A DNA stretch of 64,000 nucleotides from an uncultured Clostridium sp. GTDB lineage: Bacteria; Bacillota; Clostridia; TANB77; CAG-508. This document shows positions 20,554-58,554 of the stretch, piece by piece. A program made the position numbers and the translations under genes. The notes beneath the pieces are model-generated. The model was given only the letters and a program-made list of their open reading frames with translations. It ran no database searches and was not told the origin of the DNA. The stretch spans positions 3,361 to 67,360 of the forward strand of contig CAMSMU010000001.1 of the NCBI GenBank assembly GCA_947061115.1, read 5' to 3'. Each line of letters starts with the position of its first letter. The stretch's first letter is position 1.

Positions 20554-21765
20554 CTACATATATAAAGTGCCTCTCATGCCAATGTTACTACCAGAACTGA
20601 TGGTACTGCCGTAATCACGACTGCCCGCTGGGTAGTAAAGAGCAACAATGTTGTAATAGCCACCACGCTGAACGCAACGAAAGACAGAGTCATAGGTCTC
20701 TGTTGTCCATTCAAAAACATTTCCTCCCATATCATATATGTTTTTTACTGCGTGATATCCTGTATTTTTTAAGCCTCCATTTCCTGAATAATTTCCGCCT
20801 TCACTATTTACTGCATATGTTCCCTCTATAAACTGTAAGGCTGTATCCCATGCATAACTACTACATAATTTTGACTTTCCTGTATACATTCTTTCTGCTA
20901 TAGTTTTCGCTTCATCTCTTGTTATCCAATTATATACTGGTAAATTTTCTTTTATTCTTGCAGTTGCGATTATATTTCCTTCACTACTTTCGTTTCTTGA
21001 ACTATCTGTTCCAACTTCGTATCTACCTAAATAATACCCTCCATATTTTTGTATACTTATTCTTTCATCTTCTGGTAATGCTTCATGATAATAACCTGAT
21101 GTATTATTTACTTTTTGTATCTTATAACTTCCATCTGCATCTTTTTCATATTCTCCATTTGATACTAATACAAATGATTGCCTTCCACTCCAATCATCTC
21201 TTGTAAATGCATATCTATCATATTTTAATGTATTATTTTCTCCATCTAATGAGCATGGAATCCATACAAATTGATTTCCTACTGTATCATTGTTATTTGC
21301 ACTTACATCTTCTATTACTATTCCTTCTTCTACTGTTTGATCAGGGTTTATTACTTTAAATCCTGCTGGAACTACTACTCTATTTCCATTTTTATCTGTT
21401 GTTTCTGTATTTGTTCTTTCTTCTCCTGTTATTTCTTTTAATGGATTTTTATTATTTCCTCCATTTCCATCTAATCCTAAATTCTTTAATGTTTCATCAT
21501 AAGTATTTGCAAAACTCTGCATTTCGCTTGCTTCATTTGCTTCTGCTTCCCTCCATGTATTCGCCGCATTTTTGGCTCTTGTAAATAACCCATTATTGCC
21601 TACTGTTAGGCTTATAGCTATTCCTGCTAATATTAATAACACTATTATTGTTACGACTAATGCTATCAATGTTATACCTGCGGGCGACTGATAGTCGCCC
21701 ATACGAACGTTTTTTATATTCTTTACACCTTTTACCACTTTATTTATCCTCCTTTGTTTTTGCAA
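20554..21765 (-). CDS. prepilin-like (N_methyl-type helix, Ala at +5) protein with C-terminal FGE-sulfatase-like domain
   Basis: GDYQSPAG|ITLIALVVTIIVLLILAGIAI, then a linker, then a domain with YDMGGNVFEWT and RGGYY (FGE/SUMF1-fold motifs). An alternative GTG start at 21738 follows RBS AAAGGAGG. Confidence 0.6.
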   Translation of the reverse strand: MQKQRRINKVVKGVKNIKNVRMGDYQSPAGITLIALVVTIIVLLILAGIAISLTVGNNGLFTRAKNAANTWREAEANEASEMQSFANTYDETLKNLGLDGNGGNNKNPLKEITGEERTNTETTDKNGNRVVVPAGFKVINPDQTVEEGIVIEDVSANNNDTVGNQFVWIPCSLDGENNTLKYDRYAFTRDDWSGRQSFVLVSNGEYEKDADGSYKIQKVNNTSGYYHEALPEDERISIQKYGGYYLGRYEVGTDSSRNESSEGNIIATARIKENLPVYNWITRDEAKTIAERMYTGKSKLCSSYAWDTALQFIEGTYAVNSEGGNYSGNGGLKNTGYHAVKNIYDMGGNVFEWTTETYDSVFRCVQRGGYYNIVALYYPAGSRDYGSTISSGSNIGMRGTLYM

Positions 21766-22039
21766 TTTATTTTAATTGCTTTTTATTATTTATATAATAT
21801 CATTTTTTATTTTGCAATTATTATTAGTTGCTTTATTTTACTTATTTTTATTATTATTTCTATTATTGAATTTATTATTCTTTTGTTTAATATTATCTTT
21901 TTTAGGGAGATTTATAATCGTCCCTACAATTTAATTTATAATAAAAAATTTTTTTATACTTATCTTCTCTTGTTACATATATGCTACTTTCCTCCTTTTT
22001 CAACCAATTTTGACTGTCCCCTTTGGTTGCCCCTGCAAC

Positions 22040-22230
22040 CACAAAAAACTATGCTTTTTAGATTTCTCTAAAAAACATAGTTTTTCTACGTTTACGTAAT
22101 TCTATTTCATTAAACCTTACGATATATATATATATATATATACAGTATCAGGTGTTTTAACGTTTTTCATTTGCTTTTTCCTCGTATTTATTTTTACATA
22201 TTTTATCATATCCAATTTTGTCTAACAATA
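22040..22230 (-). promoter_or_regulatory. repeated leader element, copy 1: promoter, (TA)10, leader ORF 22117..22170 and terminator-like hairpin
   Basis: Minus strand carries TTGTTA-17-TGATAAAAT. GAGGAAAAAGCAA precedes ATG AAA AAC GTT AAA ACA CCT GAT ACT G(TA)10 TCG TAA, giving MKNVKTPDTVYIYIYIS. The hairpin is AAAAACTATGTTTTTTAGA-GAAA-TCTAAAAAGCATAGTTTTT followed by TTTTTTG. Confidence 0.55.
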
Positions 22231-22386
22231 CTAACTTATTATTTTACATCATTAAATATTTAAAACTATTGAAGTTATTATATATAACTTGTTGTGCTGC
22301 CATTACTGTTTCGTTTTTTATTTCTTCTTTGTTATATTGAACATCAAATTGATTATTAGGCTAATTAGTATTTTGATTATTTTTCA

Positions 22387-23248
22387 CTATTTTAATGTTG
22401 CTAATCCTATAAAACGTACTCCTTGATAAGATACATTACCTACATTTGCTTCAGCACATTTGCTAGTAAATCGCCCATATAGTATTCTCTCATCTTGATA
22501 ATAATCACAAATCCCTTTAGTAATTGAATATCGAGAGTCAACTGTAGCTATATTATATGCATAAGCCTCTGATACCAAAAAATCTATTTTATCGATTTCA
22601 TTTGGATAATTCATATATAAGCTATATTTACCTTCTTGTAAATTATAACCTGGAGTCATATATGAATAAAATAGACACTTTTTTCCACCTAATTTATATA
22701 TATAGAATTTTCCATGCCCATTGTTACCGATAACTTCCTCTAGTTTCTAATTGTTCTAGTGTCCTATTATCCTTTTCATTCATTTCATTTTGTATATTTT
22801 CATATTTTTCATTAAGATTAGTATATTTATTCTCTAAATCTGCTAATTTGTTCATTAGTTCTTCGATATCAGCATTTGTATTTGTTTCTGTATTACCTTC
22901 TATCTTTATCTCATTTCCAAACTGTGTTAACATTTCTATTTCATTTTCTTCAGCTTGTTTATATTTTTCTACTGCTTTTTTTGCTCTTGATATTATTCCA
23001 TTATCTCCTAAGGTAAAATTTATTGTTATACCTGCCAATATTAATAAAACTATTATTGTAACAACCAATGTTACTAATGTTATACCTGATGGCGACTGAT
23101 AGTCTCCTCTACATTCGTTCTTTTTATTCATCTTTATTACTATATTAGATAATCTTCCACCTTCTCTACTTTTTAATTTATTATTAAAAAACTTTTTCTT
23201 ATAGTTAGCTTCTTTTGCTACATACATCCTACTTTCCTCCTTTTTCAA
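22387..23248 (-). pseudogene. prepilin-like protein with coiled-coil linker and C-terminal HG-YIY domain; +1 C frameshift joins ORFs 22724..23248 and 22387..22659
   Basis: N-terminus RGDYQSPSG|ITLVTLVVTIIVLLILAGITI. The coding strand reads TTATCGGTAACAATGGGC; without the C it continues GSYGNNGHGKFYIYKLGG into the downstream ORF. The inserted base is at plus 22727..22729 (ccg). Confidence 0.6.
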
Positions 23249-23299
23249 CCAATTTTGACCGTCTCCTTTGGTTGGAATTCTTTGTTTTTGTTTATTTTA

Positions 23300-23490
23300 C
23301 GCAAAAAACTATGCTTTTTAGATTTCTCTAAAAAACATAGTTCTTTCTACGTTTACGTAATTCTATTTCATTAAACCTTACGATATATATATATATATAT
23401 ATACAGTATCAGGTGTTTTAACGTTTTTCATTTGCTTTTTCCTCGTATTTCTTTCTATATATTTTATCATTTTATTTTTTTTCGTTCAAC
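23300..23490 (-). promoter_or_regulatory. repeated leader element, copy 2: promoter, (TA)10, leader ORF and terminator-like hairpin
   Basis: TTGAAC-17-TGATAAAAT promoter. Leader ORF and (TA)10 match copy 1. Hairpin at 23305..23342. It is followed by hairpin CAACCAA..TTGGTTG and RBS AAAAAGGAGG, then ATG TAT GTA of the 22387..23248 gene. Confidence 0.55.
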
Positions 23491-23509
23491 CATTAGTTTT
23501 AAATTACTA

Positions 23510-24296
23510 TTATCCTAATGCAACATCTAATATCATCATTATTATAAAACCAACTATTAACCCTAATGTTGCTAAATTTTTATTTTCTTTTATTGATTCT
23601 GGTAATAGTTCTCTTGCTACAACTGAAATCATTGCACCTGCTGCAAATGAAAGTAAAAGTGGCAATATACTCCTTATACTCAAAACCAATACTACTCCAA
23701 TAACTGCTGATATAGGCTCTACTAATGCTGATGCCTGCCCAATCATAAAACTTTTAAATCTAGAAAATCCTTCATTTCTTAATGGTAAGGAAACTGCTGC
23801 ACCTTCTGGAAAATTTTGAATACCTATACCTAATGCAAGCATAATTGCTCCTATTAGAGTCATTCCTGGTACTCCACTTGCTATACCTCCAAAGGCAACA
23901 CCTACTGCCATCCCTTCTGGTATATTATGAATTGTAATTGCAGATATTAAAAGTATACTTCTTTTTAATGAATCTGCTTTTTTTAAATTATCACTATTCT
24001 TTAATACCTTATCTAAAAATCTATCAGATAATAGCACGAAAAGTCCTCCAAATACAAAACCTATAGTTGGAAATATCCAAGCTATGTATCCTAATTCATT
24101 GGATAAATCTATTGCTGGTGCAAGTAAAGACCAAAATGAAGCTGCTAACATTACTCCAGCACTAAAACCTAAAATTGTATCTAATACTTTTTTGTTCATT
24201 TCTTTGAAAAAGCATACAACTAAAGCTCCTAATGCTGTTACTCCTCATGTAAATGTTGTAGCAATTAATGCTTGAACTACTGAGTTTAAATTTTCA
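23510..24296 (-). pseudogene. ZIP-family (ZupT-like) metal transporter with an in-frame TGA
   Basis: The N-terminus begins at a TTG start with RBS AGGTGA and reads (M)NWFENLNSVVQALIATTFT. It stops at TGA (plus 24241..24250, tcctcatgtaa) where Trp of TWGVTALGALVV is expected. The rest is ORF 23510..24199 and carries the HNIPEGMAVG and NFPEGAAV ZIP motifs. Confidence 0.6.
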
Positions 24297-24399
24297 AACC
24301 AATTCAATTTTTTCACCTCACATTACATAATATGAGTTATTTTTGTATTATGATACTACTTTTAGTTTTATATAATAGGAGTTCTTTGATCTTTCTATT

Positions 24400-24428
24400 A
24401 TATAAAAAGGCGATTTATAATCGCCCCT
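24400..24428 (-). terminator. rho-independent terminator (GGCGATTTATAATCGCC hairpin)
   Basis: Perfect 7-bp stem at 24409..24425, followed on the minus strand by CTTTTTATAT. It lies downstream of the 24453..25739 gene. Confidence 0.55.
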
Positions 24429-24452
24429 ACAATTTATGAATATTTAAGTTGT

Positions 24453-25739
24453 CTATTTCTTTTTTAGAAATTTGTAATTACCTTTAAAATGTAATAATGT
24501 AAATATTATGGCTACTACTGCACATATAATTACTATACTAAAAATTATCCATATATATTTATTAGTTTTGCTTTTTTCATTTTGATTTATATTTTCATCT
24601 TCTAATTTTATTTTTTCGATTTTATATGCATTTTCTAATAACTTTTGATTTGTATTTTGTTCCTCTATATATTTTTTCTCATCTTCAATATTTCTTTTAT
24701 ATACTTCTATTTGATATTTTTTATTACTTATTTTATCTGGAGATGTTACTAATATTGTTACTAAATTATTTCCTTCTTTTAAGTTGTCTTTTCCATTTAT
24801 TTCTACTACAGATTGTTCATTTTCTGGAATTGCTAAAATATTAATACTGTTTTTATCATTTGCTATTTCTGCTTTATAATTAACTTGGTTGACATCAAAT
24901 GGTACATTTAATAAAATATTTTCTATTGCTAATATTTCTAAATTTGTATTAGATAATTCAATATTATCTGTTTTTGTTACATTAATATTATAAATATTTT
25001 TTTCACTATTATCTTCTGAAATTACTTCAATAGATATTTTATTCAATCCTTTTTTTAATTCTTTATTTCCATTTATATTTACTGTTGAATTAGGATTTTG
25101 AGCAATTGCCAATACTTCTATATCTTTTATATTTTCTTCAGTTGTCAAATAATACTCATACACATCTGAATTAAATACTGGATGTGTTCCCTCTATATCA
25201 AGTCTTAAATCTTTTAATTTTGCATTACTTATTTCTGTATTAGTTCCTTGCTCTTCTTCTAATTGCTTTTCTAACTTAGTTTGCTCTCTTCCTATTTGTA
25301 TTTGTTTCTCTTTAAAATCAATTTCTATTAATTCTTCTTTTGCATTATAAAATTCTCCTTGTACATTGAAAGTTGCTAATCCTTCGTCCTTTGCTCTGAA
25401 TTTTAATTTTATAAGTTCTCCTTCTTTTCCTTCTAATCCACCTGTGTCATCATGCCAAACGAACATTACTCTATCTTCTATTACATTTGTATTTTCAATA
25501 TTTGATACATATTCAAATTTTAGTTCATCATAATATATAGATATGCTAAATGCCCCTGTTTTTGTATCTTTTAAATTTATAGTTAATTCTATTTCTTCTC
25601 CCTTTTCTATTATATCTTCATTACTTTCTATATACACTATTCCTTTATTTGCTGCATACGTATAAGTATTTGCACAAAATATTAGCATTATAATATTTAT
25701 TAAAATTATTAATTTATTCTTCATGTGCTGTTCCTCCAT
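24453..25739 (-). CDS. cell-surface protein: signal peptide, cohesin-like domain, two cadherin-like beta-sandwich domains, C-terminal TM anchor
   Basis: Signal peptide, then a cohesin-like segment ELTINLKDTKTGAFSISIYYDELKFEYVSNIE. Two repeats follow, of the form LSN..L..L.I......F....Y......V.V, and the protein ends at IWIIFSIVIICAVVAIIFTLL. Confidence 0.5.
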   Translation of the reverse strand: MEEQHMKNKLIILINIIMLIFCANTYTYAANKGIVYIESNEDIIEKGEEIELTINLKDTKTGAFSISIYYDELKFEYVSNIENTNVIEDRVMFVWHDDTGGLEGKEGELIKLKFRAKDEGLATFNVQGEFYNAKEELIEIDFKEKQIQIGREQTKLEKQLEEEQGTNTEISNAKLKDLRLDIEGTHPVFNSDVYEYYLTTEENIKDIEVLAIAQNPNSTVNINGNKELKKGLNKISIEVISEDNSEKNIYNINVTKTDNIELSNTNLEILAIENILLNVPFDVNQVNYKAEIANDKNSINILAIPENEQSVVEINGKDNLKEGNNLVTILVTSPDKISNKKYQIEVYKRNIEDEKKYIEEQNTNQKLLENAYKIEKIKLEDENINQNEKSKTNKYIWIIFSIVIICAVVAIIFTLLHFKGNYKFLKKK

Positions 25740-25743
25740 TAAT

Positions 25744-27993
25744 CTATTGTTCTATTTGTTTTAAATTTAATATATGCCTTTGTATTAATAGTAAATCTAC
25801 TGATGTTGGATTTTTTCCGTCCTTATTTATATTAGAAGCTTTTTTGTATATTTGTTTTAATGGCTCTATTTGTAATATATGACGTTGCAATACTAATAAG
25901 TCTACACTATTAATTTTACCATCACCATTTGCATCACCATATACAATAATTTGATATTGTCTAATAACTTTCCCATCTTCCTTAATTCTTATTTTACTTC
26001 CCGTTCCTACAATACCTGTATCCTCTATCAATTCATTTTTCTTATTTACTATTTCTATTTCTAAATCTGTAATAATTTTATCTTTTACATCTAAAACTGT
26101 ATTGCTAGAATACTCTATTCCGCTAATTTCAAAACTATTTACTTTAAGTGGATTTTCAAAGTAAATTTCTGAATCATCCATTTTTCTTACAACATTTACT
26201 GTACATTCTGCTTTTATATCACTATTTTCGTTTGAAGTCACAGTTATTTTTGTTGTACCTTCTGATTTTGCTGTTATAATTCCATTTTGGTCTATATCTG
26301 CTATACCTATGTCTGAACTACTAAATGTATAGGTATTATTATCTGAATCTTCTGGATAAATATATGCATTTATTTTAAATTCATCTTCTATTTGCATATA
26401 AATTTCTTCTTGATCTAATTCAATGTTAGTAACTGGTGTATATACTTTTATTTTAATTTGACTTTGTACATTGTTTTCCATAGCTTTAACAGTAATTGTG
26501 GTTTCTCCTGAAGAAATTGCCTTAATATTTCCTTTTTCGTCTACTGTTGCAACATTAGGATCACTTGAGGTAACTCTAATTTGATTATCTTTTGCTTCCT
26601 CTGGTAATATTTCTATTTCTAATTTTTTTCTTTCTCCTTTTTTTAATATATTATTGTCTAAGTTAATATTAATTGCTTCTATTTTAGCATTTGGAATTTC
26701 TGTTACATATGATCCGAAAATATATCCAATAATACCATTTTCTAATATTATTTTATCCCATCTTTCTCCTGATTGAATTCCCCTTCCTATTCTTACCATT
26801 TTATCTTCTTTATTTATTGTTGTAATTATTTCATATGATGTTGATGGTCCTGTTCTAATATTAACATTACTACCATTACAATAAGCTCTAGTATTATCTG
26901 TTACAAAATCATTAGAATTTATATTAGGATTTTTTGTAGGTGTAGATGGCATATTATTATATACAGGTATTATAAATGTAATAGGAGTTTCTAATAATCC
27001 ACTTTTTTGATATCCATTATATATTGACTTTGATTCACTAAAAGGTGCTAATACGTTTGTCATATATTGATGTGTAAATAATGTTCCATTTCTATCATCA
27101 TTTACATCAAACTTTTGAAGATAAATTGTATTTTGTCCTACATTTATATAACTAGATCCTATAAATATTCCTCCACCTGTTATTGACCTTTCTTTTGTAT
27201 TCCATGGAATTAAATATTTATCTTTAACTGATTGACTTGCACCTTTTCCATCTCTTGCATATTGAAGACCATTTTTTATTGCTCCCATTGGTTCTGCTGA
27301 ACTTGTTGCTCCAATATTATAAAAGTTATAAAGTCCCTTAAAGCCTTCTACATTACCACTAATGGAACTATGAGATAAGAATGGACCTACTTCTTGTTTA
27401 ATACGAGAGGCCAAATGATATGGACTAACTCTCGATACTTGTCCACCTCTTAAAATCAAATCCGAATATTTTTCATTCATGTTTATATTATTTCCATAAG
27501 CATCTAAATACGATACTTTTCTATTATAAAATTCTGTTCCATATAAAATTTTTTCAACACTGTCTAAATTATTTGTATGCTCTTCATATGATAATGCTTC
27601 AAATTGAAATAATCGTACTTCATTTAAAAAATTTCTTGGATCCATACAAAATTCTACTGCCTCTCTTGAACTATCTACCCATCCACTATCTACTTCAACA
27701 TTATATTGTCCTGGTGTAGTATTTTTCCAACTATCTGAATAATTTTTAGGTACTAAATTTTTTCCAAAAATGTTTTCTTCATTTATTACATAATTCCAAT
27801 CAAGGTTTGTATATAAAGCTTTAAATTGCCAATTTGGATGTTTTTTGGATATTTCCTGTAAATATGGTCTATAGCTACTTGGGAAATTTTCTATTCCATA
27901 TAATTTGTCAGAGGCATTAACTTTTATATTTAAAATTATTAATATTACTAATATTATCATTATAATAATTATATTTATTTTTTTATTTTTCAT
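25744..27993 (-). CDS. peptidoglycan hydrolase (GH73 glucosaminidase-like) with SH3b, two Big_2 domains and a C-terminal type I dockerin
   Basis: Dockerin duplicated segments GDANGDGKINSVDLLVLQRHIL and NINKDGKNPTSVDLLLIQRHIL. Two Ig-like Big_2 repeats (ITVKA..., ITVTS...). N-terminal signal and glucosaminidase-like catalytic region. Confidence 0.6.
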   Translation of the reverse strand: MKNKKINIIIIMIILVILIILNIKVNASDKLYGIENFPSSYRPYLQEISKKHPNWQFKALYTNLDWNYVINEENIFGKNLVPKNYSDSWKNTTPGQYNVEVDSGWVDSSREAVEFCMDPRNFLNEVRLFQFEALSYEEHTNNLDSVEKILYGTEFYNRKVSYLDAYGNNINMNEKYSDLILRGGQVSRVSPYHLASRIKQEVGPFLSHSSISGNVEGFKGLYNFYNIGATSSAEPMGAIKNGLQYARDGKGASQSVKDKYLIPWNTKERSITGGGIFIGSSYINVGQNTIYLQKFDVNDDRNGTLFTHQYMTNVLAPFSESKSIYNGYQKSGLLETPITFIIPVYNNMPSTPTKNPNINSNDFVTDNTRAYCNGSNVNIRTGPSTSYEIITTINKEDKMVRIGRGIQSGERWDKIILENGIIGYIFGSYVTEIPNAKIEAININLDNNILKKGERKKLEIEILPEEAKDNQIRVTSSDPNVATVDEKGNIKAISSGETTITVKAMENNVQSQIKIKVYTPVTNIELDQEEIYMQIEDEFKINAYIYPEDSDNNTYTFSSSDIGIADIDQNGIITAKSEGTTKITVTSNENSDIKAECTVNVVRKMDDSEIYFENPLKVNSFEISGIEYSSNTVLDVKDKIITDLEIEIVNKKNELIEDTGIVGTGSKIRIKEDGKVIRQYQIIVYGDANGDGKINSVDLLVLQRHILQIEPLKQIYKKASNINKDGKNPTSVDLLLIQRHILNLKQIEQ

Positions 27994-28003
27994 ATCTACC
28001 TCT

Positions 28004-28636
28004 TTAAATAACTTCTCTAGCTTTAACTATTGTTCTCTTACTTGAATCATTTGTACATGTAATTAATGTTGTTTCTCTTCTTCCTTCTGTTGCTTGTGAT
28101 AAACAATCTATGTTTTCTGGAGGAACAACATAAATATTATAAATCTCATATTCAACTTTTCCTATATTACGATCAGAAATTGTCAATTTATCTCCAACAT
28201 TTAACTGTTTTAAATTATAAAACATATTTTTATTTCGTGGTGCATTGTGTCCTGCAACACATAAATTTCCTATTTTATTTGGGTCTGCTCCCCAAAATTT
28301 AGCCACAGATTTATTAAGTGAATCCTCTGTATATTCTTCTAATATATATGTTTCAAGGTTTATTTGAGGAATTACTAATTTAGCTGATACTTTATACCCT
28401 CTATATTCTTCTATTATTTCTTCTTTAGGGTATTCTTTTTGTATTACTTCATTATTTTCTTCAATTTCATTTTCTACATTATTCATTATGAATAAATTTT
28501 TCATAGCATTTTGTGATGATTCCCCTATATCAGGTACTTCATTTTTAGCATCTCTATATATTTCTAAACCTATCCATATTATAAAAATAATTATTATCGG
28601 AATTAAAATATAATTTATATTTTTCTTTTTTATCAT
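28004..28636 (-). CDS. sortase
   Basis: N-terminal TM anchor, His motif LCVAGHNAP, Cys motif TLITCTND and a downstream Arg; 210 aa. Confidence 0.7.
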   Translation of the reverse strand: MIKKKNINYILIPIIIIFIIWIGLEIYRDAKNEVPDIGESSQNAMKNLFIMNNVENEIEENNEVIQKEYPKEEIIEEYRGYKVSAKLVIPQINLETYILEEYTEDSLNKSVAKFWGADPNKIGNLCVAGHNAPRNKNMFYNLKQLNVGDKLTISDRNIGKVEYEIYNIYVVPPENIDCLSQATEGRRETTLITCTNDSSKRTIVKAREVI

Positions 28637-28674
28637 TTTAGTAAATATCCTTTCATAAAACTTAAAATCTATGT

Positions 28675-28700
28675 AAATGCGGACTTTGCAGTCCGCTAAA
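28675..28700 (-). terminator. hairpin terminator after the cohesin-LPXTG gene
   Basis: gcggactttgcagtccgc, a perfect 7-bp stem, at 28679..28696. Confidence 0.4.
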
Positions 28701-28717
28701 TTACAGAAATGTTCTTA

Positions 28718-29758
28718 CTATTTTTTCTTTGTTATGCTATAAGCACTTATTCCTACTAAACCTACTAAAACTGCTACTATTGGTATATAAATATTGCTAC
28801 CTGTTTTTGGTAATGTTGTAGGTTCTGTTTCTTCTGATGGATTTTCTGTTGGTGTATTTTCTACTGGTGGTTCTTGTTCATCAGGATCTTGTGCTGGTGG
28901 TGTTACAGGTGAATGTTCTTCTAATACTGCAAAATTAAATTCTTTTTCTGCTATTACACTATCACTATTATCTCTATCTATTAATTTTAAGGTAATAGTA
29001 TAATTTCCTTGTTCACTAAACATTGCTCTAGTTTGTAAAATTTGCATTACATCTTTTCCACCTATTGCAAATCCTTGGGCGTCTCCCCAACCACTTTGGA
29101 TAATATCATGTTCTAAGTCATTTTCATCATTTGCTAATAATTGTACTGTTGCTCCAGTAGGTGCAGTATATTCTGCAACTAATCTGGCATGGTTATAATA
29201 TCTACCCATTGCTGAAGAATAAGAAAGTGTCATTTCTTTTTCTTCTCCTTTTACTATTTCTCCTGTATATTCTAATTTTAATTCATAATCTTGATATTCT
29301 GGTTCTACTGTTACATTTTTAACAATTGGTGTTGTAATATCATCATATGTTACAGATGCATCAGAATTTGCTAATCCTTCTGCTGTTATAGTAAATTCTG
29401 TTGGATTAGATGTAGTAATCCCTGTTTTTGCATTAAATTTAATTGACATATTTGCTCTTGGATTTGTTCCACCTGTTGCATCATAATAAGTTACTCTTAC
29501 TTTATCTGCTGTGTCATTAGCTGTTCCACCATCTACTGATGCATATTCAAAAAGATTATCATCATAAGCAATATCAAATGTGTATGCACCTAAATCTTCT
29601 CCAAAATTTATTGTAACTTCTACTTCTTCTCCAGGTCTAACTATAGTTTTACTTGTATTAATATCTATACTATCTAATGACGCTGCATAAGTTCTAGTTG
29701 AGAAAATTATTAATGATAGCACTGCTAAAATTGAAAAAATATTAATAATTTTTTTCAT
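28718..29758 (-). CDS. LPXTG-anchored cohesin-domain surface protein
   Basis: Signal peptide, a cohesin-like N-terminal domain (GEEVEVTINFGEDLGAYTFDIAYDDNLFEYASVDGG), a Pro/Glu-rich stalk, and LPKTG plus hydrophobic segment plus KKK at the C-terminus. Confidence 0.7.
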   Translation of the reverse strand: MKKIINIFSILAVLSLIIFSTRTYAASLDSIDINTSKTIVRPGEEVEVTINFGEDLGAYTFDIAYDDNLFEYASVDGGTANDTADKVRVTYYDATGGTNPRANMSIKFNAKTGITTSNPTEFTITAEGLANSDASVTYDDITTPIVKNVTVEPEYQDYELKLEYTGEIVKGEEKEMTLSYSSAMGRYYNHARLVAEYTAPTGATVQLLANDENDLEHDIIQSGWGDAQGFAIGGKDVMQILQTRAMFSEQGNYTITLKLIDRDNSDSVIAEKEFNFAVLEEHSPVTPPAQDPDEQEPPVENTPTENPSEETEPTTLPKTGSNIYIPIVAVLVGLVGISAYSITKKK

Positions 29759-29894
29759 TACAAAATCCTCCTTTTTTCGATTTATGTTTTTATTATTTGA
29801 CTTTTTAAAATTTATTATGCATCAATATCATTTACAATTTTTTCATTTTCAATTTTGTTCAAGATTTGCAAAATTTTTTTAAAATTGTAAAAAA

Positions 29895-29932
29895 TATAAA
29901 AAACACTGCAAATTAATGCAGTGCTTTTTCTT
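29895..29932. terminator. bidirectional terminator
   Basis: Hairpin CACTGCA-aattaa-TGCAGTG with a T-run after it on the plus strand and AAAAAA before it, which gives a T-run on the minus strand. Confidence 0.55.
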
Positions 29933-29975
29933 GACATTCTACTTTATGAATTCAGAAAGTGATTATAGAACATTA

Positions 29976-30671
29976 TTACTTGTTTGACATTATGTAATAA
30001 GCAATCGTTTTAATAAATTCTGAGGATGTAGGATTTCCTTTATCAGGTGATATTGTACTTCCAAAAATTTCATTTACAATATCCATTCGATTTATATTCC
30101 ATGCAGTTATTATTGCACATCTTATTAGCCGTTCAACTGCTGCAGGAGTTGTATTATATTTTTTTGCTATAGCTGGATACAACTCTTTTGTAGGTGATAA
30201 CATTTCTTTTTTACACCTAATTATAGCTTCTATTAAGTACTTATATCCATTAAGATATACTGGTATCCCCAACATATGCAGATATCCTATTACTTCACGC
30301 TCCTCTATTTTTTCTTCATCTGTAATCTGCATATCCAGATTTACACGTTCGGCAATCAATGCAATGAATTCTTCATTTTTTGGAGTTACATAATTTTCGG
30401 ATACCATATATCCAAATATATTTTCCAACTTTCCTGTCCAATCCATCACATCTCTTAGCTGCTTACGCATTGTGCTTTGTATGTCTGCAACTCCATGTTT
30501 CTTTGCTATTTTTTTATAGATGTCAATTGCTGACTTTGATTCTTTATTTAAGTACATTATAATTGCTTCTTTAAAATACTCATATGACTTATTTTTATGT
30601 GGTATACCTATCATCTGAAGGTACTTTTCTATTAATACTTCTGTTGTTAATTCTTTTTTCTCATTTGTCAT
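29976..30671 (-). CDS. tandem Spo0A C-terminal (DNA-binding) domain protein with no receiver domain
   Basis: Two repeats match the Spo0A_C signature: IGIPHKNKSYEYFKEAI..IYKKIAKKHG and LGIPVYLNGYKYLIEAI..LYPAIAKKYNTTPAAVERLIRCAIITAW..NPTSSEFIKTIAYYI. Confidence 0.6.
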   Translation of the reverse strand: MTNEKKELTTEVLIEKYLQMIGIPHKNKSYEYFKEAIIMYLNKESKSAIDIYKKIAKKHGVADIQSTMRKQLRDVMDWTGKLENIFGYMVSENYVTPKNEEFIALIAERVNLDMQITDEEKIEEREVIGYLHMLGIPVYLNGYKYLIEAIIRCKKEMLSPTKELYPAIAKKYNTTPAAVERLIRCAIITAWNINRMDIVNEIFGSTISPDKGNPTSSEFIKTIAYYIMSNK

Positions 30672-30705
30672 TGCTTTCCTCCATTAAATAGTATTATATA
30701 AATAC

Positions 30706-40057: not shown

Positions 40058-41275
40058 TTATTTTCCCCCTTTTATATAAAGTTGTAATTCTATTACTTTT
40101 GCTTTAGCTCTGCCATCTATGAATTTTAAGTTTATTTGGTCTTCTGGTTTTAAATTTTTAACTTTAGATATAACTTTGCCATCCTTTTCGGCTATATTAT
40201 ATCCTCTTGCAAGTGTTTTAATTGGACTCAATGCATCCAATTTAGAAAGTAATTCTACATATTCTGACTTTGAATTATTTATTTTTGTAATGATACTATT
40301 TTTTAATGATTTTACATTCATATCTATTAATATTGCTTTTTCATTTATTTTTTGAAGAGGATCTTTAAATGCTCTTCTAGTCATACATTTTTCATATCTT
40401 ATTTTCATTATTTCTAATTTTCTCTTAAGCGATACTTTGTATCTATTTTGATATGTATATATTGTATATTTTATATCTTCAATATTTGGAACTGTTAGTT
40501 CTGCAGCAGCTGATGGTGTTGGTGCTCTCAAATCTGCTACAAAATCTGCAATTGTAAAATCTGTTTCATGTCCAACTGCTGAAACTATAGGTAGGTTAGA
40601 ATTATATATTGCTCTTGCAACTATTTCTTCATTAAATGGCCATAAGTCTTCTAATGATCCTCCTCCTCTACCTATAATTATTACATCTGCTAATTTTTCT
40701 TTATTCATTTTTTCAATTGCAAATGCAATTTTTTCTGCTGCTCCTTCTCCTTGAACTGGTACTGGAAGAAGTCTAATATGTACATTAGGATTTCTTCTTT
40801 GTCCTACATTTATAATATCTCTAATAACAGCTCCTGTAGATGAAGTAAGTACACCTATTGTTTTTGGAAAAATGGGAATAGGCTTTTTGTATTTTGCATC
40901 AAATAGTCCTTCTTTTTCTAACTTCTCTTTTAACTTTTGATATTCTTCATAAAGACTTCCTATACCATCTTCTTTCATTGCCTGGCAATAAATTTGATAT
41001 ACTCCGTCTCTTTCAAATACTCCTACTTTTCCTAAAACAATTACTTTCCTTCCATCTTTTGGCATAAAATTTAAATGTGGAGTATAACTTTTAAACATGA
41101 TGCATTTTATGAGTGAATTCTCATCTTTTAATGTAAAATACATATGACCTGTATAATGAAGTTTAAAATTTGATATTTCACCTTTTACATATACACTATT
41201 TAAAAAGTCATCTCCATCTAATTTTTGTTTTATATATTGGTTTAATTCTTGAACAGTTATTGGTTTTATATCCAT
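40058..41275 (-). CDS. xseA: exodeoxyribonuclease VII large subunit
   Basis: N-terminal OB fold (VKGEISNFKLHYTGHMYFTLKD), catalytic core (IGRGGGSLEDLWPFNEE); 405 aa. Confidence 0.9.
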   Translation of the reverse strand: MDIKPITVQELNQYIKQKLDGDDFLNSVYVKGEISNFKLHYTGHMYFTLKDENSLIKCIMFKSYTPHLNFMPKDGRKVIVLGKVGVFERDGVYQIYCQAMKEDGIGSLYEEYQKLKEKLEKEGLFDAKYKKPIPIFPKTIGVLTSSTGAVIRDIINVGQRRNPNVHIRLLPVPVQGEGAAEKIAFAIEKMNKEKLADVIIIGRGGGSLEDLWPFNEEIVARAIYNSNLPIVSAVGHETDFTIADFVADLRAPTPSAAAELTVPNIEDIKYTIYTYQNRYKVSLKRKLEIMKIRYEKCMTRRAFKDPLQKINEKAILIDMNVKSLKNSIITKINNSKSEYVELLSKLDALSPIKTLARGYNIAEKDGKVISKVKNLKPEDQINLKFIDGRAKAKVIELQLYIKGGK

Positions 41276-41294
41276 TTATAGATCCTTTCAAGTT

Positions 41295-41705
41295 TTATAG
41301 TCCACTTTTCTTAACAACACTTGCTAAAACACCATTTACAAATGCTTTTGAATTATCATCTCCATATTTTTTTGATAATTCAACAACTTCGTTTATAACT
41401 ACTTTATATGGCAATTTTGAATATAGTATTTCATAAATTCCTAATTTAAGTAATGCTAAATCAATCTTTGATATTCTTTTAATATCCCAATCTGATTTTA
41501 TATTTTCTGATACCATATTTTCAATCTTCTCATTCTCTGCACTTGTACCATTAATTATATCTTCTATATATTTAATAGCTTCTTTGTCCGTTATGTTATT
41601 ATCTTCTATATATACTTCTATTTGCTCTTTTATATCTTTATCTGACATTAATTGAAGACTATATAATAGTTTAAAAGCTTCTTCTCTTGCCTCTGTTCTT
41701 TTCAT
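41295..41705 (-). CDS. nusB: transcription antitermination factor NusB
   Basis: 136 aa, REEAFKLLYSLQL pattern, upstream of xseA as in the Bacillus/Clostridium synteny. Confidence 0.85.
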   Translation of the reverse strand: MKRTEAREEAFKLLYSLQLMSDKDIKEQIEVYIEDNNITDKEAIKYIEDIINGTSAENEKIENMVSENIKSDWDIKRISKIDLALLKLGIYEILYSKLPYKVVINEVVELSKKYGDDNSKAFVNGVLASVVKKSGL

Positions 41706-41718
41706 TTTTTACACCCTT

Positions 41719-41952
41719 TTACATTTTATCTATTATTTTTTTTAACTTTTCTTTAACTTTATCTTTATTGTGTTGAAAGTAATTTCCTAACCATATTCCA
41801 ATTACTATAAGAACTATACATATAATAAGCCTATATAGACCTGTACAAGCTATTATTAAAGCTATAATGCCTCCTAATATACCTCCCCAATAATTTGTTA
41901 AGAATTTTTTGAAATCGTCCATTTTTGCACCTCCATTAATCTTCTGACTCAT
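41719..41952 (-). CDS. DUF2273 small membrane protein
   Basis: 77 aa, FLTNYWGGILGGIIALII; member of the Asp23 operon. Confidence 0.65.
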   Translation of the reverse strand: MSQKINGGAKMDDFKKFLTNYWGGILGGIIALIIACTGLYRLIICIVLIVIGIWLGNYFQHNKDKVKEKLKKIIDKM

Positions 41953-42520
41953 TGTTTTTTACTGTTTCTTTATCTGAAATATTTTCCACATCTTTTACCT
42001 TAATGTTAATTTCTTTTATTTCTAAATCAGTAGCTTTTTTCACAGATGTTTTTATGCTATCTTGTAATTTAGTAGATACATTTTTTATAACTGCACCTTT
42101 TAATACATTTATTGATAAATTTACACACACATCGTTATTACTATCTATTTCTACATCAGATGTTGCATCTTCTATTTCTTTAGATTCTTCTACTACACTA
42201 GCTACTAAATTTTTTATTGTTCCTTTTGTTATTAGCAATTTTCCATTTTCATTTTGTAGTAATATTCCTTCATCATCATCTGATGAATTTCTATGTTTTT
42301 CCCAACTTGGAAAAAATAAACATTTTATTGCTAAGAATATTAATACTGCTAAAACTATTGTCATAATATATACACCATTTTGAGTACTGTATATTGTATT
42401 TAGTGCCACTACTATTACAGATATATCTACCCAACCAAATGATATTAAACAAATTAAAATTGAAAAAATTAATACGATAAGCGAAAATACAGCTAGTCCT
42501 AATTTATCTAAAAATTTCAT
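41936..42520 (-). CDS. amaP: alkaline shock response membrane anchor protein AmaP
   Basis: N-terminal TMs plus an Asp23-like extracytoplasmic domain; adjacent to asp23. Confidence 0.65.
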   Translation of the reverse strand: MKFLDKLGLAVFSLIVLIFSILICLISFGWVDISVIVVALNTIYSTQNGVYIMTIVLAVLIFLAIKCLFFPSWEKHRNSSDDDEGILLQNENGKLLITKGTIKNLVASVVEESKEIEDATSDVEIDSNNDVCVNLSINVLKGAVIKNVSTKLQDSIKTSVKKATDLEIKEINIKVKDVENISDKETVKNNESED

Positions 42521-42590
42521 ATACTACCTCCTATTTTTATATAATAGAAAGTTCAAATAAAGAACTTTCTTACTTATATAAAATTAAAAT

Positions 42591-43058
42591 TTATTTCTTT
42601 TTAGTTTCTTTTTTTGTTTCCTTTACTGTTTCTTCTTTTTCCTCTTTTTTGTTTTCTTCTTTTTCTTCATCATGTACTGTACTTACACCTTGTACATGTA
42701 CATTTACTTCTAATACATTAAGACCTGTCATATTTTCTACAGATTTTTTAACTCTCTTTTGGATCTCGAAAGCTACATCTGGAATTCTTGCACCATATTC
42801 TACTATTATATTTACATCTATCTTAGCTTCTTTATTGTCTAATATCTCAACTTTTATTCCTTTTGCTAAGTTCTTTTTTCCACTTAAAACTTCAGAAATT
42901 CCACCAGCAAATCCACCAGCCATTTCTGATACTCCTAATACTTCTGATGCTGCCATACCTGCTATAACAGCTACAACATCGTTTGATATTTCTATATTGT
43001 TTTCTCCCTCATTTATTATTACTTCGTCTTTTTTATTCTGCTTTTTTTCTTCTCCCAT
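42591..43058 (-). CDS. Asp23/Gls24 family envelope stress protein
   Basis: ISNDVVAVIAGMAASEVLGVSEMAGG and EVNVHVQGV motifs. Confidence 0.85.
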   Translation of the reverse strand: MGEEKKQNKKDEVIINEGENNIEISNDVVAVIAGMAASEVLGVSEMAGGFAGGISEVLSGKKNLAKGIKVEILDNKEAKIDVNIIVEYGARIPDVAFEIQKRVKKSVENMTGLNVLEVNVHVQGVSTVHDEEKEENKKEEKEETVKETKKETKKK

Positions 43059-43173
43059 AATATACCTCCTATAATTTATAGATATTCTAAGTATATCAAT
43101 ATATGCTTAAATTTACAATAGTTTATGAATAAATTTAAGCTATTTTTTTAGTTTTTATTACTACTAAACCATT

Positions 43174-43222
43174 AATAAAAATCGTTTTAACATTATTTAT
43201 AATTTGTTAAACGATTTTTTAT
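43174..43222 (-). terminator. rho-independent terminator after the 43246..43458 gene
   Basis: AAAAATCGTTTTAACA..TGTTAAACGATTTTTT, a ~14-bp stem, followed by a T-run on the minus strand. Confidence 0.55.
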
Positions 43223-43245
43223 AAATTATATTTTTAAAATTAGTC

Positions 43246-43458
43246 CTACTTTATATATAGTGCAGGGCGAAATCCAAGATCTGTAGAAGTATTAGTTAAC
43301 GGACCAGATCCACGGTAACATGTAGGACGGTTTGAGCTATTTCCTACTAAAATTAATAGCACAATTATTGTTACTACTAATGCTACAAGTGTTATTCCGT
43401 TATGAGTACTAAACTCGTCCTTACAAGCGTTTTTCATATTTCTTACATCTTTTACCAT
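43246..43458 (-). CDS. short prepilin-like protein (70 aa)
   Basis: MVKDVRNMKNACKDEFSTHNG|ITLVALVVTIIVLLILVG, then a short tail whose codon usage is unusually GC-rich (CGT, CCG, CGC). Confidence 0.45.
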   Translation of the reverse strand: MVKDVRNMKNACKDEFSTHNGITLVALVVTIIVLLILVGNSSNRPTCYRGSGPLTNTSTDLGFRPALYIK

Positions 43459-43599
43459 CTATTTCATTCTCCTTTGTTTTTGCAATTATTATTAGTTGCT
43501 ATTTTAAATTTGTTTTTATTATTATTTCTATTATTAAGTTTATTATTCTTTTGTTTAATATTATCTTTTTTCGGGCGATTTATAATCTCCCCTAAGAGC

Positions 43600-43745
43600 T
43601 TTTATGATCTGATTTTTACGCAAAAAACTATGTCTTTTACATTCTTCTAATAAGACATAGTTTGCTATGTTTATGTAATTTTATTTCATTGAACCTTACG
43701 ATATATATACATCCTCAATGCTTTTCTTCATTTTTATATTTCCTT
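43600..43745 (-). promoter_or_regulatory. repeated leader element, copy 3 (degenerate): (TA)4, leader ORF 43696..43731, hairpin with compensatory stem changes
   Basis: RBS AAAAGGAAAT..ATG gives MKKSIEDVYIS. The hairpin AACTATGTCTT-ATTAGAAGAATGTA-AAGACATAGTT followed by TTTTTGCG sits at the same place as in copies 1 and 2 but has a different stem sequence. Confidence 0.45.
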
Positions 43746-43755
43746 TTATTTTTAT

Positions 43756-43833
43756 TTATATATTAGCTAATATTAATAACACTATTATTATCACAACCAG
43801 TGTTACTAAAGTTATTCCCTTTTCTCTTTTCAT
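43756..43833 (-). pseudogene. mini-ORF remnant holding only the prepilin-like leader and helix (25 aa)
   Basis: RBS GGAGAG then ATG: MKREKG|ITLVTLVVIIIVLLILANI, then a stop. Confidence 0.4.
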
Positions 43834-44013
43834 ATGTTCTCTCCTAAAATTTGAATTTACTTTTTCTTAATTATATTACAAGAATTTATTTACATCAATA
43901 CTAATCTAAATTCCCTGTACTATCAAATGAATAAAACACTAAAAACTGCATATGCACAGTTTTTTCATTTGTTTTTATATTTTTAATATTATACCTGTTC
44001 AAATATAATTTTT

Positions 44014-45276
44014 CTAGTTTTTTACAAATATATAATTCCGCCTAAAACCAATTCGTTTAAAACTTTCTTTTGAAGTGGTAATATTGGATGCTAAACGAAA
44101 GCATGGCCAATTAATATTCAGATAATTTCCTCCTCTAGATATAAAAGGGTTATCTTTAGTATAGCCTTCTGTACTCCATTCTGATACATTTCCTGCCATA
44201 TCATATATATTACATCTTACATCTTTATTTGTTCCATCACTAGATTGTCCTGTTTTTGCAAGTGAATATTGTAATTTATTTTGTTTTGAATACTCTTTAT
44301 CTCCACTAAATTCTTGAATAAATACTATTGCTGTATCCCATGAATAGCTATTTATTAAATCGCTTGTATATTTTTCATTTTGATTACTATATAAATTTCT
44401 CATTAATGTAGCTGCATTTGTCTGATATATGCAATTATATGCTATTTTATTCTCTTTAAAAACTGGTGTAGTACTCTGGCTTGATCCATCAACTCTATCA
44501 TTTGTAGCTGTTGGATCTCCTGCTTCATATCTGGCAATATAATATCCTCCATTATTTTTTACACTTTCTTTAAATGCATTTATATCTTTTGCTATTGTAT
44601 TTCCAAATTTGCTTATTACATGTTCTTCTGCTGTTTCTTCTTTATGATTCCCACTAAATTCACTTATTGATCCATTGCTACCAAAATCATATCTTCCAAG
44701 ATATATTGTATGCTCTATTCCATTACTATCTTTTATTGTATTCGCTTTTTCATCATCTACATGAGAAACTGGTATCCATACATATTGATTTCCTTTACTT
44801 GTTGCATTATTTGCTATTACATCTTCTATTATTATTCCTTTTGTTACATCTTCTTCAGGATTTAGAACCTTGAATCCTGCTGGTATTACTATTTTATTTC
44901 TATTTTTATCTGTTGTTTGTATATTTTTTGTTTCATTTACTGTTATTTCCTTTAACGGATTAATATTATCATCTTTAGGATTTTCTTCATTGTTTCCTGA
45001 ATTTTCACTATGAGTTTCATTTCTTAATTTTTGCATTTGACTCGCTAATTTTGAAAGTTCTCCTTCCTCTTCTTCTGTAGCTTTTTTCCAATCATTCACT
45101 GCTTCTTTTGTTTCACTTAGTACCCCTCCATCTTTCATTGATAAATTAATTGCTACTCCTGCTAATATTAAAAGTACTATTATTGTTACTACCAATATCA
45201 TTAAAGTTATACCTTGTTGATTAGTGATGTTTATTTCTACTTTTTTTATTCTTCTTTTCAACTTGTTTTTTATCAT
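44014..45276 (-). CDS. prepilin-like protein with C-terminal FGE-sulfatase-like domain, paralog of 20554..21765
   Basis: NQQG|ITLMILVVTIIVLLILAGVAI, and YDMAGNVSEWSTE..RGGNY in the C-terminal domain; 420 aa. Confidence 0.6.
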   Translation of the reverse strand: MIKNKLKRRIKKVEINITNQQGITLMILVVTIIVLLILAGVAINLSMKDGGVLSETKEAVNDWKKATEEEEGELSKLASQMQKLRNETHSENSGNNEENPKDDNINPLKEITVNETKNIQTTDKNRNKIVIPAGFKVLNPEEDVTKGIIIEDVIANNATSKGNQYVWIPVSHVDDEKANTIKDSNGIEHTIYLGRYDFGSNGSISEFSGNHKEETAEEHVISKFGNTIAKDINAFKESVKNNGGYYIARYEAGDPTATNDRVDGSSQSTTPVFKENKIAYNCIYQTNAATLMRNLYSNQNEKYTSDLINSYSWDTAIVFIQEFSGDKEYSKQNKLQYSLAKTGQSSDGTNKDVRCNIYDMAGNVSEWSTEGYTKDNPFISRGGNYLNINWPCFRLASNITTSKESFKRIGFRRNYIFVKN

Positions 45277-45339
45277 TATATTTCTCCTATTTTTTATTAA
45301 CTATATATGTAATTTTCCTATACTATATTTATCTTAAAA

Positions 45340-45480
45340 TAAACAAAAACTATATATTTTAGATTCTCCTAAAATACATAGCTTTTTTCCTATGTTTACG
45401 TAACTTTATTTCATTAAACCTTACGATATATATATATATATATACAGTATCAAGTGTTTTAGCGTTTTTTATTTATTTTT
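45340..45480 (-). promoter_or_regulatory. repeated leader element, copy 4: (TA)8, promoter TGATAAAAT; leader ATG mutated to ATA; hairpin rearranged
   Basis: The minus strand reads ..GGTATGATAAAATAAATAAAAATAACTAAAAGGAAAAAATAAATAAAAAACGCTAAAACACTTGATACTG(TA)8TCGTAAGG.., with inverted repeats CATAG/CTATG and ATTTTAG/CTAAAAT. Confidence 0.45.
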
Positions 45481-56040: not shown

Positions 56041-56051
56041 ATCTGCCTCCT

Positions 56052-58533: not shown

Positions 58534-58554
58534 TAGCTTTCCTCCTCCTATTTT

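Follow-up and report, generated by a model that had tools for sequence, protein, structure and literature searches.

Six Loci With a Common N-Terminal Module

The 64-kb stretch of DNA analyzed here (the window; contig CAMSMU010000001.1 of an uncultured Clostridium sp.) contains six loci that share a module consisting of a basic leader, a Gly residue, and a long hydrophobic helix with resemblance to type IV prepilins. The six loci with a basic leader, Gly, and an ITL..LVV helix that had been proposed from the letters alone are all recovered by a six-frame scan, in which the motif G-[IV]-T-[LM]-x-x-L-V-V has exactly six sites, all on the minus strand, with Gly codons at 21678, 23086, 37613, 43398, 43818, and 45213. 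In 200 codon-block shuffles, a loose form of the pattern occurs 0.08 times on average and the strict form never occurs. The motif family is therefore real, given the six window copies against none in shuffles and the DNA identity of the 68-nt module core (71–82% between window copies). On balance, four of the loci are judged to be genes and two to be remnants, all from a very large family that would encode binding proteins of the cell surface in uncultured low-G+C gut Clostridia. The six are as follows (FGE, formylglycine-generating enzyme; DGR, diversity-generating retroelement; ORF, open reading frame).

Gene A, 20554..21738, minus strand: 394 amino acids (aa); leader MVKGVKNIKNVRMGDYQSPAG, then ITLIALVVTIIVLLILAG, a charged helical stalk, and an FGE-subtype C-type-lectin domain.
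Gene A tail, 20554..20691, minus strand: DGR variable region-like, the final ~45 codons (RGGYYNIVALYYPAGSRDYGSTISSGSNIG..).
Gene B, frameshifted, 22387..23248, minus strand: 5′ ORF 22724..23131 (start alternatively ~23226 or 23248) and 3′ part 22387..22716 in the +1 frame.
Gene C, 37074..37667, minus strand: 197 aa; module, acidic linker, and a small C-terminal domain without known fold.
Gene D, 43246..43458, minus strand: 70 aa; N-terminal module joined to the final ~30 residues of the lectin-fold domain (..GFRPALYIK).
Remnant E, 43756..43833, minus strand: 26 codons, MKREKG-ITLVTLVVIIIVLLILANI, then a stop.
Gene F, 44014..45276, minus strand: 420 aa; module, helical stalk, low-complexity linker (~81–102), and FGE-subtype C-type-lectin domain (~105–420).

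For gene A, the original prediction gave the locus as 20554..21765. The gene stands, but this boundary does not: the ORF is open to TTG 21765, and the start is most likely GTG 21738, which has AGGAGG 8 nt upstream and with which the public gene call (P0312, 394 aa) is consistent. The locus of gene B had been taken as one ORF; however, a stop lies at 22724 and reading resumes in the +1 frame, and gene B is a frameshift or pseudogene. Its 5′ ORF encodes the module and an acidic coiled-coil, and neither part of the gene matches any Pfam family. The frameshift region (22695–22730) adjoins a (TA)5 run at 22695–22704, and the frameshift may reflect an artefact of sequencing or assembly or else a genuine site of slippage. 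Gene C has only two full-length relatives, P0121 (96%) and P0122 (32% identity, E = 9e-21). An "HG-YIY" domain thought to be common to B and C was rejected, because the similarity is a 13-residue match (pairwise E = 0.025) and the rest is unalignable. Gene D is only 70 aa long, as had been noted, but its nature is that of an internal-deletion derivative, with the module joined to the end of the lectin-fold domain. D and E look like recombination or deletion debris of events that bring together the common 5′ unit and 3′ cargos.

Relation of the Module to Type IV Prepilin Signals

In the window copies, leaders of 6–22 residues with a net charge of +1 to +6 precede the Gly, the residue just before it is A, S, D, N, K, or Q, and the uncharged stretch after it spans 17–26 residues. 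Among 118 homologues, which were picked by a motif that fixes the Gly, the leader has a median length of 10 aa and a net charge of +3, Lys or Arg precedes the Gly in 98/118, and position +1 is Ile in 117/118; the uncharged run has a median of 25 residues in the family. An amphipathic helix, G-x-N-G-I-x-x-x-A-x-x-A, follows the uncharged stretch. Position +5 is A, T, V, A, T, and I in the window copies, and A in 99, V in 13, and another residue in 6 of the homologues. The claim that Glu5 is replaced by Ala thus stands as to the loss of Glu, which occupies +5 in no window copy and in 0 of the 118 homologues; Ala is not the rule in the window (2/6), yet it is the consensus of the family.

A profile of 30 diverse family N-termini retrieves type IV pilins as all five of its top matches among 177,635 PDB sequences. 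MshA ranks first (E = 3e-4), the others are PilA, two geopilins, and PilE1, and GspG appears lower in the list (E range 3e-4 to 1.2); the pilin alignments are in register, with Gly on Gly and T-L-I on T-L-I. By comparison, a control profile made from a family with an N-terminal transmembrane segment in the same genomes (MENASKAL proteins; see section The Tad-Like Operon and Its Surroundings) retrieves ACE2 transmembrane segments and unrelated proteins at E > 0.3, and no pilin from the PDB. Matches to Pfam N_methyl at E <= 1 are obtained for 22 of the 30 family N-termini (best 4.7e-6), and a few relatives (P0150, P0152) reach the Pfam threshold in precomputed PF07963 matches. The N_methyl likeness originally proposed therefore holds as a relationship, but not as a score above the curated threshold, which the window copies do not reach.

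The h-region of a Sec signal peptide is far shorter than 25 residues. An ordinary Sec signal had been named as the finding that would speak against the module; what is found instead is a positive leader, a median uncharged run of 25 residues, and top matches to pilins only. Because the profile retrieves pilins in register, the control does not, and the uncharged run is long, the N-terminal module can be assigned by sequence to the relatives of the type IV prepilin (class III) signal and not to Sec signal peptides. Classical Glu5 prepilin motifs number 0 in 1.72 Mb of DNA, against ~30 Glu5-less modules. A literature search found no paper containing the motif strings.

A Lectin-Fold Cargo Domain of the FGE Type

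Two of the loci had been described as carrying FGE-sulfatase/SUMF1-type motifs, and these motifs are real: DMxGNVxEW, RGG, and GFR are present in the family cargo. Since matches to Pfam FGE-sulfatase are sub-threshold, the fold needed structural demonstration, and a profile of 115 homologues finds SUMF2 with an E-value no better than 0.33. The AlphaFold model of F (built with 115 sequences) has a mean predicted local distance difference test score (pLDDT) of 82.7, with values > 90 over most of residues 120–400. It comprises an N-terminal helix (3–46), a second helix (54–88), a disordered linker (81–102), and a compact domain. In fold comparison, the best matches of this domain are DGR variable proteins, which are non-enzymatic, and SUMF2, EgtB, OvoA, and PvdO are matched as well. 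The model and the fold search thus confirm the FGE-type fold foreseen for the C-terminal domain, which is a C-type lectin fold with the variable region at its C-terminus.

In FGE, the catalytic cysteines lie after RGG. Only one Cys is near-invariant among the 115 sequences (C355, before DMxGN), and the segment after RGG is the hypervariable part of the family. The cargo domain is probably a binding scaffold and not a formylglycine-generating enzyme, and the earlier description of it as enzyme-like is not sustained by the non-enzymatic best matches, the single near-invariant Cys, and the hypervariable post-RGG segment.

Variable Tails of the DGR Type

The tails of the family proteins were examined because the best structural matches are DGR variable proteins. 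In the homologues at loci L086, L088, and L056, the last 40 codons have a third-position G+C content (GC3) of 0.55–0.75, vs. ~0.1 in the genome and gene body, and C is the third base in 20–22 of the 40 codons. The tails are also more variable than the domain bodies. For homologue pairs with domain bodies 90–97% identical, the RGG-to-GFR tail has a mean identity of 68% and a minimum of 27%; at 80–90% body identity the tail identity is 42%, and between F and its nearest relatives the body is 63–69% identical and the tail 0–17%. The aligned tails share the scaffold TET.xxSxxPCVxRGGxYxxSxxxTSxRxxxxTSxSxxxxGFRPLLYL, in which the variable positions are occupied only by NNC-encodable residues (K, E, Q, M, and W never). 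In related genomes, this DGR-type variable region makes up the final ~45 codons of the domain.

A scan of metagenome contigs for a pattern of the fixed bases found five contigs. At L099 (12091–14182, minus strand), a family gene is immediately followed by a MutS_I-like ORF, bAvd (66 bits, cut-off 40), and a reverse transcriptase (RT) in two ORFs, the second of which is fused to a C-terminal iron alcohol dehydrogenase fragment; this cassette is best interpreted as a degraded DGR. Codon bias, hypervariability, residue set, and the L099 cassette together mark the lectin-type members as a predicted DGR target family. The L099 spacer contains a structured GC-rich tandem repeat (CACCTAGCGGTGGCGC x2).

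In the window, the tail of gene A has a G+C content of 0.50 in its last 90 nt vs. ~0.3 in the rest of the gene, and a GC3 of 0.45–0.5 vs. 0.13. The tail of F has a GC3 of 0.2, near genomic composition, and contains K, E, and W. Gene A appears to keep a variable region (VR)-like tail, and the tail of F appears to have decayed. A search of the window for a template repeat (TR) of the A, F, and D tails returns only the A/F paralogue match in the DMxGN region, and no TR is found in L086, L088, L098, or L099.

Nucleotides just 3′ of the stop codon are conserved among divergent genes (TAGAACTGAACGCTTAAGCCG in L088 and L099, TAGAACTGAATGCTAAAGCCG in L098, TAACGCTGAGTGCTTGTCAGCG in L086, and TAGACCTGAGTTCTAATAGC in the window at 20530–20556), and those of L086 form a hairpin. 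They could be an initiation of mutagenic homing (IMH)-like homing signal at the end of the variable region.

Family Size, Exchangeable Cargos, and a Duplicated 5′ Unit

With gene F as query, > 6,468 relatives are found. Nearly all lack a name as well as Pfam domains; one is called "type II secretion system protein" (NCBI) and one "hypothetical protein." Current models thus overlook the pilin-like anchor as well as the lectin-fold cargo. The related loci are all from uncultured gut Clostridia (human, rabbit, ruminant), including "Clostridium sp. CAG:389" and "Candidatus Merdicola." A near-identical module is also fused to BspA-type leucine-rich repeats (LRR_5), to a PF16738-matching domain, and to other cargos. 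At L056 (19342–20484), the same module (N_methyl 18.8 bits) precedes a different, Cys/Trp-containing C-terminus (..SDYYWSSSQCSARRAWCASF..), in which no Pfam domain is found and whose tail has a GC3 of 0.55–0.75 vs. 0.12, with C-rich third positions; this may be a second hypermutated cargo type on the same anchor.

Four window copies share ~130–400 nt of upstream DNA, which indicates that promoter, leader, and N-terminal module were duplicated as one unit and combined with varying 3′ parts. The leader elements of this unit are as follows.

Leader element of gene A, 22040..22230, minus strand: promoter-like site 22228..22200, mini-ORF from 22170, and (TA)10 at 22142..22123.
Hairpins of the gene A leader, minus strand: a small one at 22121..22095 and a 20-bp terminator-like one at ~22086..22043 (fold z = -7.25).
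Leader element of gene B, 23300..23490, minus strand: (TA)10 at 23403..23384 and hairpin 23382..23356; 94% identical to the gene A copy.
Leader element of gene D, 43615..43735, minus strand: (TA)4 at 43709..43702 and hairpin 43700..43674.
Leader element of gene F, 45335..45470, minus strand: (TA)9 at 45444..45427 and hairpin 45425..45399.

The (TA)4–10 tract of the mini-ORF (MKNVKTPDTVYIYIYIS*) encodes Tyr-Ile repeats. The small hairpins have the form CGTAAGG..TTACG, and the larger, 20-bp hairpin is A/U-rich and terminator-like. This conserved leader suggests translation-coupled attenuation, at the level of a prediction. It is not a known riboswitch, because the whole window has no Rfam match at gathering thresholds. 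Phase variation of the mini-ORF through (TA)n was considered and is unsupported, as copies with 10, 10, and 4 repeats keep the same short frame. At L089 (7600–7865, 9740–10000, and 13460–13730), three family genes with leucine-rich repeat (LRR) cargo each lie behind a mini-ORF of 40–44 aa, the stop codon of which falls inside a terminator-like hairpin.

A 17-bp palindrome, GGCGACTATCAGTCGCC, is located at 21683–21699, 23091–23107 (GGAGACT.. in B), and 45548–45564. It encodes GDYQSP in the leader peptides of A and B and is non-coding ~270 nt upstream of F, which suggests that it acts as DNA or RNA and not through the encoded peptide.

The Tad-Like Operon and Its Surroundings

The window, part of an 81-kb contig, has a G+C content of 25%, and nearly all of its genes are on the minus strand. 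Their products include Spo0A, a SpoIVB-like protease, formate-tetrahydrofolate ligase, NusB, XseA, RecG, and RNase R; the DNA is chromosomal and from a spore-forming member of the Clostridia. A surface-protein cluster at 24453–29758 (minus strand) encodes a cadherin-like beta-sandwich protein, a 749-aa SH3/Big_2/dockerin protein, a sortase, and a cohesin protein, which indicates a small cellulosome-like or cohesin–dockerin display system in the same region as the family genes.

A divergent Tad-like operon occupies the end of the window.

Tad-like operon, 53409..63957, minus strand: ParA-like gene 63169..63957, CpaF-like ATPase 61236..63134, and 691-aa membrane protein 59139..61214.
Subunit-like genes of the operon, 58555..59103, 57973..58533, 56911..57384, and 56052..56882, minus strand: three MENASKAL proteins and one MENASHAI relative.
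Rest of the operon, minus strand: weak DUF4320-like gene 55516..56040, then a 620-aa protein.

Past the window end (L001:1233–4199), the operon includes another ParA-like gene and a gene for a CpaB/SAF protein (SAF E = 4.6e-5). The first gene of the operon (L001:1233–1583) encodes a family paralogue of 116 aa that starts with MIKKENG-ITLISLVVTI... The 632-aa ATPase, which has an N-terminal transmembrane helix, is nearest to CpaF (PDB E = 4e-10) and TadA (NCBIfam E = 8e-10, far below the cut-off), and all components of the operon are far below curated family thresholds. A genome scan with a 12-sequence ATPase alignment locates related operons in 80 or more species of uncultured gut Clostridia (L004–L083), directly upstream of a gene for a SpoIVB-like protease.

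The MENA[ST]KAL-type proteins number 266 in the loci and window scanned, with 3–5 per operon and lengths of 110–400 aa. They start with M-E-N-A-[ST]-K-A-L-I-I-A-G, followed by a transmembrane helix and a conserved FN..F..Y; they lack a leader peptide, a Gly cleavage site, and similarity to Pfam families or PDB pilins. From this arrangement, they may be leaderless filament subunits.

Proposed Mechanism and Alternative Explanations

The whole is best explained, with a probability of roughly 0.55, by proteins that combine a pilin-signal-derived anchor, a stalk, and an exchangeable binding cargo, the lectin-type cargo being a DGR scaffold. The first part would be a sorting and anchoring module with a short basic leader, an invariant Gly, I-T-L-x-x-L-V-V-T-I... 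within 21–26 uncharged residues, no Glu5, and the amphipathic helix; the second part would be the stalk, charged helical or of low complexity; and the third part would be the exchangeable ligand-binding domain. The pilin-like helix is predicted to insert into the cytoplasmic membrane with the N-terminus inside, and the Gly-Ile-Thr-Leu junction is probably a prepilin-peptidase site. With no Glu5, the usual contact between Glu5 and the N-terminus would be lost, and because that contact is impossible, the subunit would be a membrane-anchored stalk or the start (tip) of a filament. The stalk would carry the lectin-fold domain through the wall to a variable ligand (glycan, cell, particle, or phage). 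Diversity would arise by DGR mutagenic homing where a cassette is present, and by duplication and recombination of the common 5′ unit with different 3′ cargos. The parts of this reading that are demonstrated are the sequence relationship between module and prepilin, the fold, and the variable-region signature of the family.

A number of observations weigh against this explanation. As to the module, Glu5 is found nowhere in the family, the window copies score 9.8–13.7 bits for Pfam N_methyl against a cut-off of 21.2 (gene A, 9.8), and no window copy matches TIGR02532 at E <= 1. The proposed search for a prepilin peptidase yielded nothing: the A24 motif G[GAMS]GD.[KR] is found by regular expression neither in the window nor in ~90 loci (~1.7 Mb in all), and no Peptidase_A24 (PF01478) gene adjoins five homologues on long contigs. 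The AlphaFold2 model of F has no pilin beta-sheet head, consisting of two helices, the disordered linker, and the lectin domain. As to the cargo, gene A scores 19.0 bits and gene F 17.2 bits for Pfam FGE-sulfatase (PF03781), below the cut-off of 23.3. The family genes lie dispersed amid housekeeping genes, and a region often holds several of them. As to the DGR, the window and the adjoining 3.3 kb at either end (flanks taken from other assemblies) contain no RT, Avd, or TR, and neither RT nor TR lies within 10 kb in L086 or L088. Because RT and TR are lacking in the window and near most members, the family genes are taken as remote, orphan, or former targets, and gene A is such a target. The F tail does not differ between samples (four full-length variants), nor does the VR of the P0088 group among five contigs. 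With these tails identical, there is no evidence of ongoing diversification in the F and P0088 lineages, and a DGR currently active on F is rejected.

The most credible alternative, though an unlikely one, is that the proteins are plain type II (signal-anchor) membrane proteins whose N-terminal helix is a mere anchor, propagated along with the gene family, and whose resemblance to prepilins is fortuitous or vestigial, with neither cleavage nor a filament. The sub-threshold N_methyl scores, the missing Glu5, a model without a pilin head, and the lack of a peptidase or pilus gene near any dispersed copy all suit this explanation, and simple N-terminal transmembrane anchors are common in cellular DGR targets (PMC8144416). 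However, the junction and helix are near-identical across unrelated cargos and genomes, beyond what anchoring needs, and the profile retrieves only pilins, in register, when a control transmembrane profile retrieves none. In addition, some members exceed the Pfam N_methyl threshold, and one bears the type II secretion name noted above.

More doubtful is the possibility that the proteins are genuine minor or tip pilins that are cleaved by a peptidase and placed by the Tad-like machine (53409..64000+) on its filament as tip adhesins. Glu5-less minor pilins of the GspK type are established at filament tips. The pilin-like N-terminus is consistent with this possibility, as are the CpaF/TadA-like ATPase, the CpaB/SAF and ParA-like genes of the operon, and the 116-aa paralogue at the head of the L001 operon with similar genes in L004 and L005; a helix-only pilin module would also suit Flp-type subunits. 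However, the remaining ~77 related operons lack this paralogue, and only 8 of 80 loci have family genes at most 10 kb from the ATPase, a proportion that by a rough estimate is about the expectation for dispersed multicopy genes. The six window loci are 8–43 kb from the operon, amid housekeeping genes, and the operon has its own conserved subunit candidates in the 266 MENA[ST]KAL-type proteins. The operon contains neither the Flp motif G/XXXXEY nor a peptidase; the family has the junction G/ITLxxLVV and proteins of 197–420 aa, not helix-only proteins of ~50–80 aa. The AlphaFold2 model of the 116-aa paralogue consists of a 54-residue helix and a small alpha/beta unit with a low pLDDT of 64, for which Foldseek returns nothing at E < 4 and no pilin. 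The idea of the original prediction that the six loci are substrates of the Tad-like locus is therefore weakly supported, because the head-of-operon paralogue is limited to the nearest relatives (L001, L004, and L005), the family genes are dispersed, and the operon has subunit candidates of its own. Less probable again is a wider scheme, in which a hitherto unrecognised Glu5-less class III-type sorting signal of uncultured gut Clostridia would deliver binding proteins, some of them DGR-diversified, from sites across the genome to a divergent Tad-like filament with leaderless MENASKAL subunits. If such delivery is true, the system would be a Gram-positive equivalent of the Bacteroides adhesins that are diversified by DGRs and sit at pilus tips, and would constitute a new type IV filament subtype.

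It is very improbable that the proteins are membrane-tethered enzymes of the FGE/SUMF1/EgtB/PvdO superfamily, acting for example in sulfatase maturation or oxidation of surface substrates. The DMxGNVxEW and RGG motifs, the weak FGE-sulfatase matches, and the folds of SUMF2, EgtB, OvoA, and PvdO would fit such a role, but the top fold matches are non-enzymatic variable proteins, the sole near-invariant Cys precedes DMxGN with the post-RGG segment hypervariable, and no sulfatase gene is seen near the family genes in the window. The least credible reading, that of phage or prophage receptor-binding proteins like Mtd, was dropped, because a scan of 2.9 million viral contigs for the lectin-type family gave only two loci, the window and homologue contexts are chromosomal housekeeping regions, and an N-terminal membrane anchor is ill-suited to a tail fibre.

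Relation to Known Systems

IPR005532 is taken here to be the FGE-type domain and IPR026906 the BspA-LRR domain. The proteins resemble modular type IV pilins such as Streptococcus sanguinis PilB and PilC in that a prepilin-type motif is followed by a functional binding module, and the LRR_5 cargos presumably match the BspA-LRR domain. They differ from these pilins in the lack of Glu5 throughout the family, in the sub-threshold motif of the window copies, in the absence from the model of a globular pilin module before the cargo, and in the location of the genes, which are not beside pilus machinery. Modular pilins were defined in a survey that lists 264 architectures, including IPR012902-IPR005532 (8 proteins) and IPR012902-IPR026906 (18 proteins), and are widespread (Raynaud et al., 2021; Dataset S1; PMC8179133). 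A pilin helix joined to an FGE fold, previously called unusual, is thus already on record.

In most cellular DGR targets, binding domains are combined with an N-terminal transmembrane segment or signal, and remote DGR targets go undetected (Roux et al., 2021; PMC8144416). Rare DGR targets noted in later surveys include "putative pilin structures" and a pilin domain of the GspG type. Unlike DGR variable proteins (TvpA, TaqVP, Mtd) and the anchored targets of Roux et al., the family has no RT or TR in the window or near most members, and no ongoing variation is seen in the F and P0088 groups. The anchor also differs, being apparently pilin-derived here and a lipoprotein signal or generic transmembrane segment in the cellular targets of Roux et al.

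Like minor pseudopilins of the GspK/PilK type, the family combines a class III-type N-terminus without Glu5 with a bulky extra domain, and Glu5-less minor pilins have been proposed to lie at the tip (also in the discussion of PMC8179133). GspK and PilK have a pilin fold and are each encoded by a single gene in a type II secretion system or type IV pilus operon, whereas here Glu5 is absent from an entire multigene family with dispersed members. With Flp/Tad pili (type IVc), the common points are a helix-only module that would suit a CpaF-type machine and the one small paralogue that heads a Tad-like operon; the differences are the lack of G/XXXXEY, the length of 197–420 aa with large cargos, and the lack of any TadV-type peptidase seen. 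From PF03781 proteins (FGE/SUMF1, PvdO, the EgtB C-terminal domain, and PorK/GldK), which share the fold and the DMxGNxxEW, RGG, and GFR motifs, the family differs by its sub-threshold scores, the apparent absence of a conserved catalytic Cys pair, and a function that is probably binding.

The type V pili of Bacteroides reportedly carry DGR-diversified tip adhesins (bioRxiv 10.1101/2024.11.15.621889). The similarity to the present family is that gut bacteria display adhesive components, of pili and related proteins, that DGRs diversify. The Bacteroides pili belong to a different class (sortase-like assembly, diderm) and a different phylum, and for the family described here attachment to a filament is hypothetical.

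Implications

The finding is real and joins two themes that were already known. Its novelty lies in a pilin-type module, as defined by sequence similarity, that is uniformly Glu5-less and sub-threshold; a very large, unannotated family in uncultured gut Clostridia; and the apparent use of this module as a common anchor for interchangeable cargos, some of them putatively of the DGR type. Recognition of the family provides a handle on how gut Clostridia with reduced genomes build and vary their adhesive surface, and adds a class of DGR targets, probably remote or orphan, to which surveys by contig are blind. The family is also a natural test of how a prepilin-type signal functions when every member lacks Glu5. 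If cleavage and filament attachment are true, targeted hypermutation would be linked to type IV-like filaments in Gram-positive gut bacteria.

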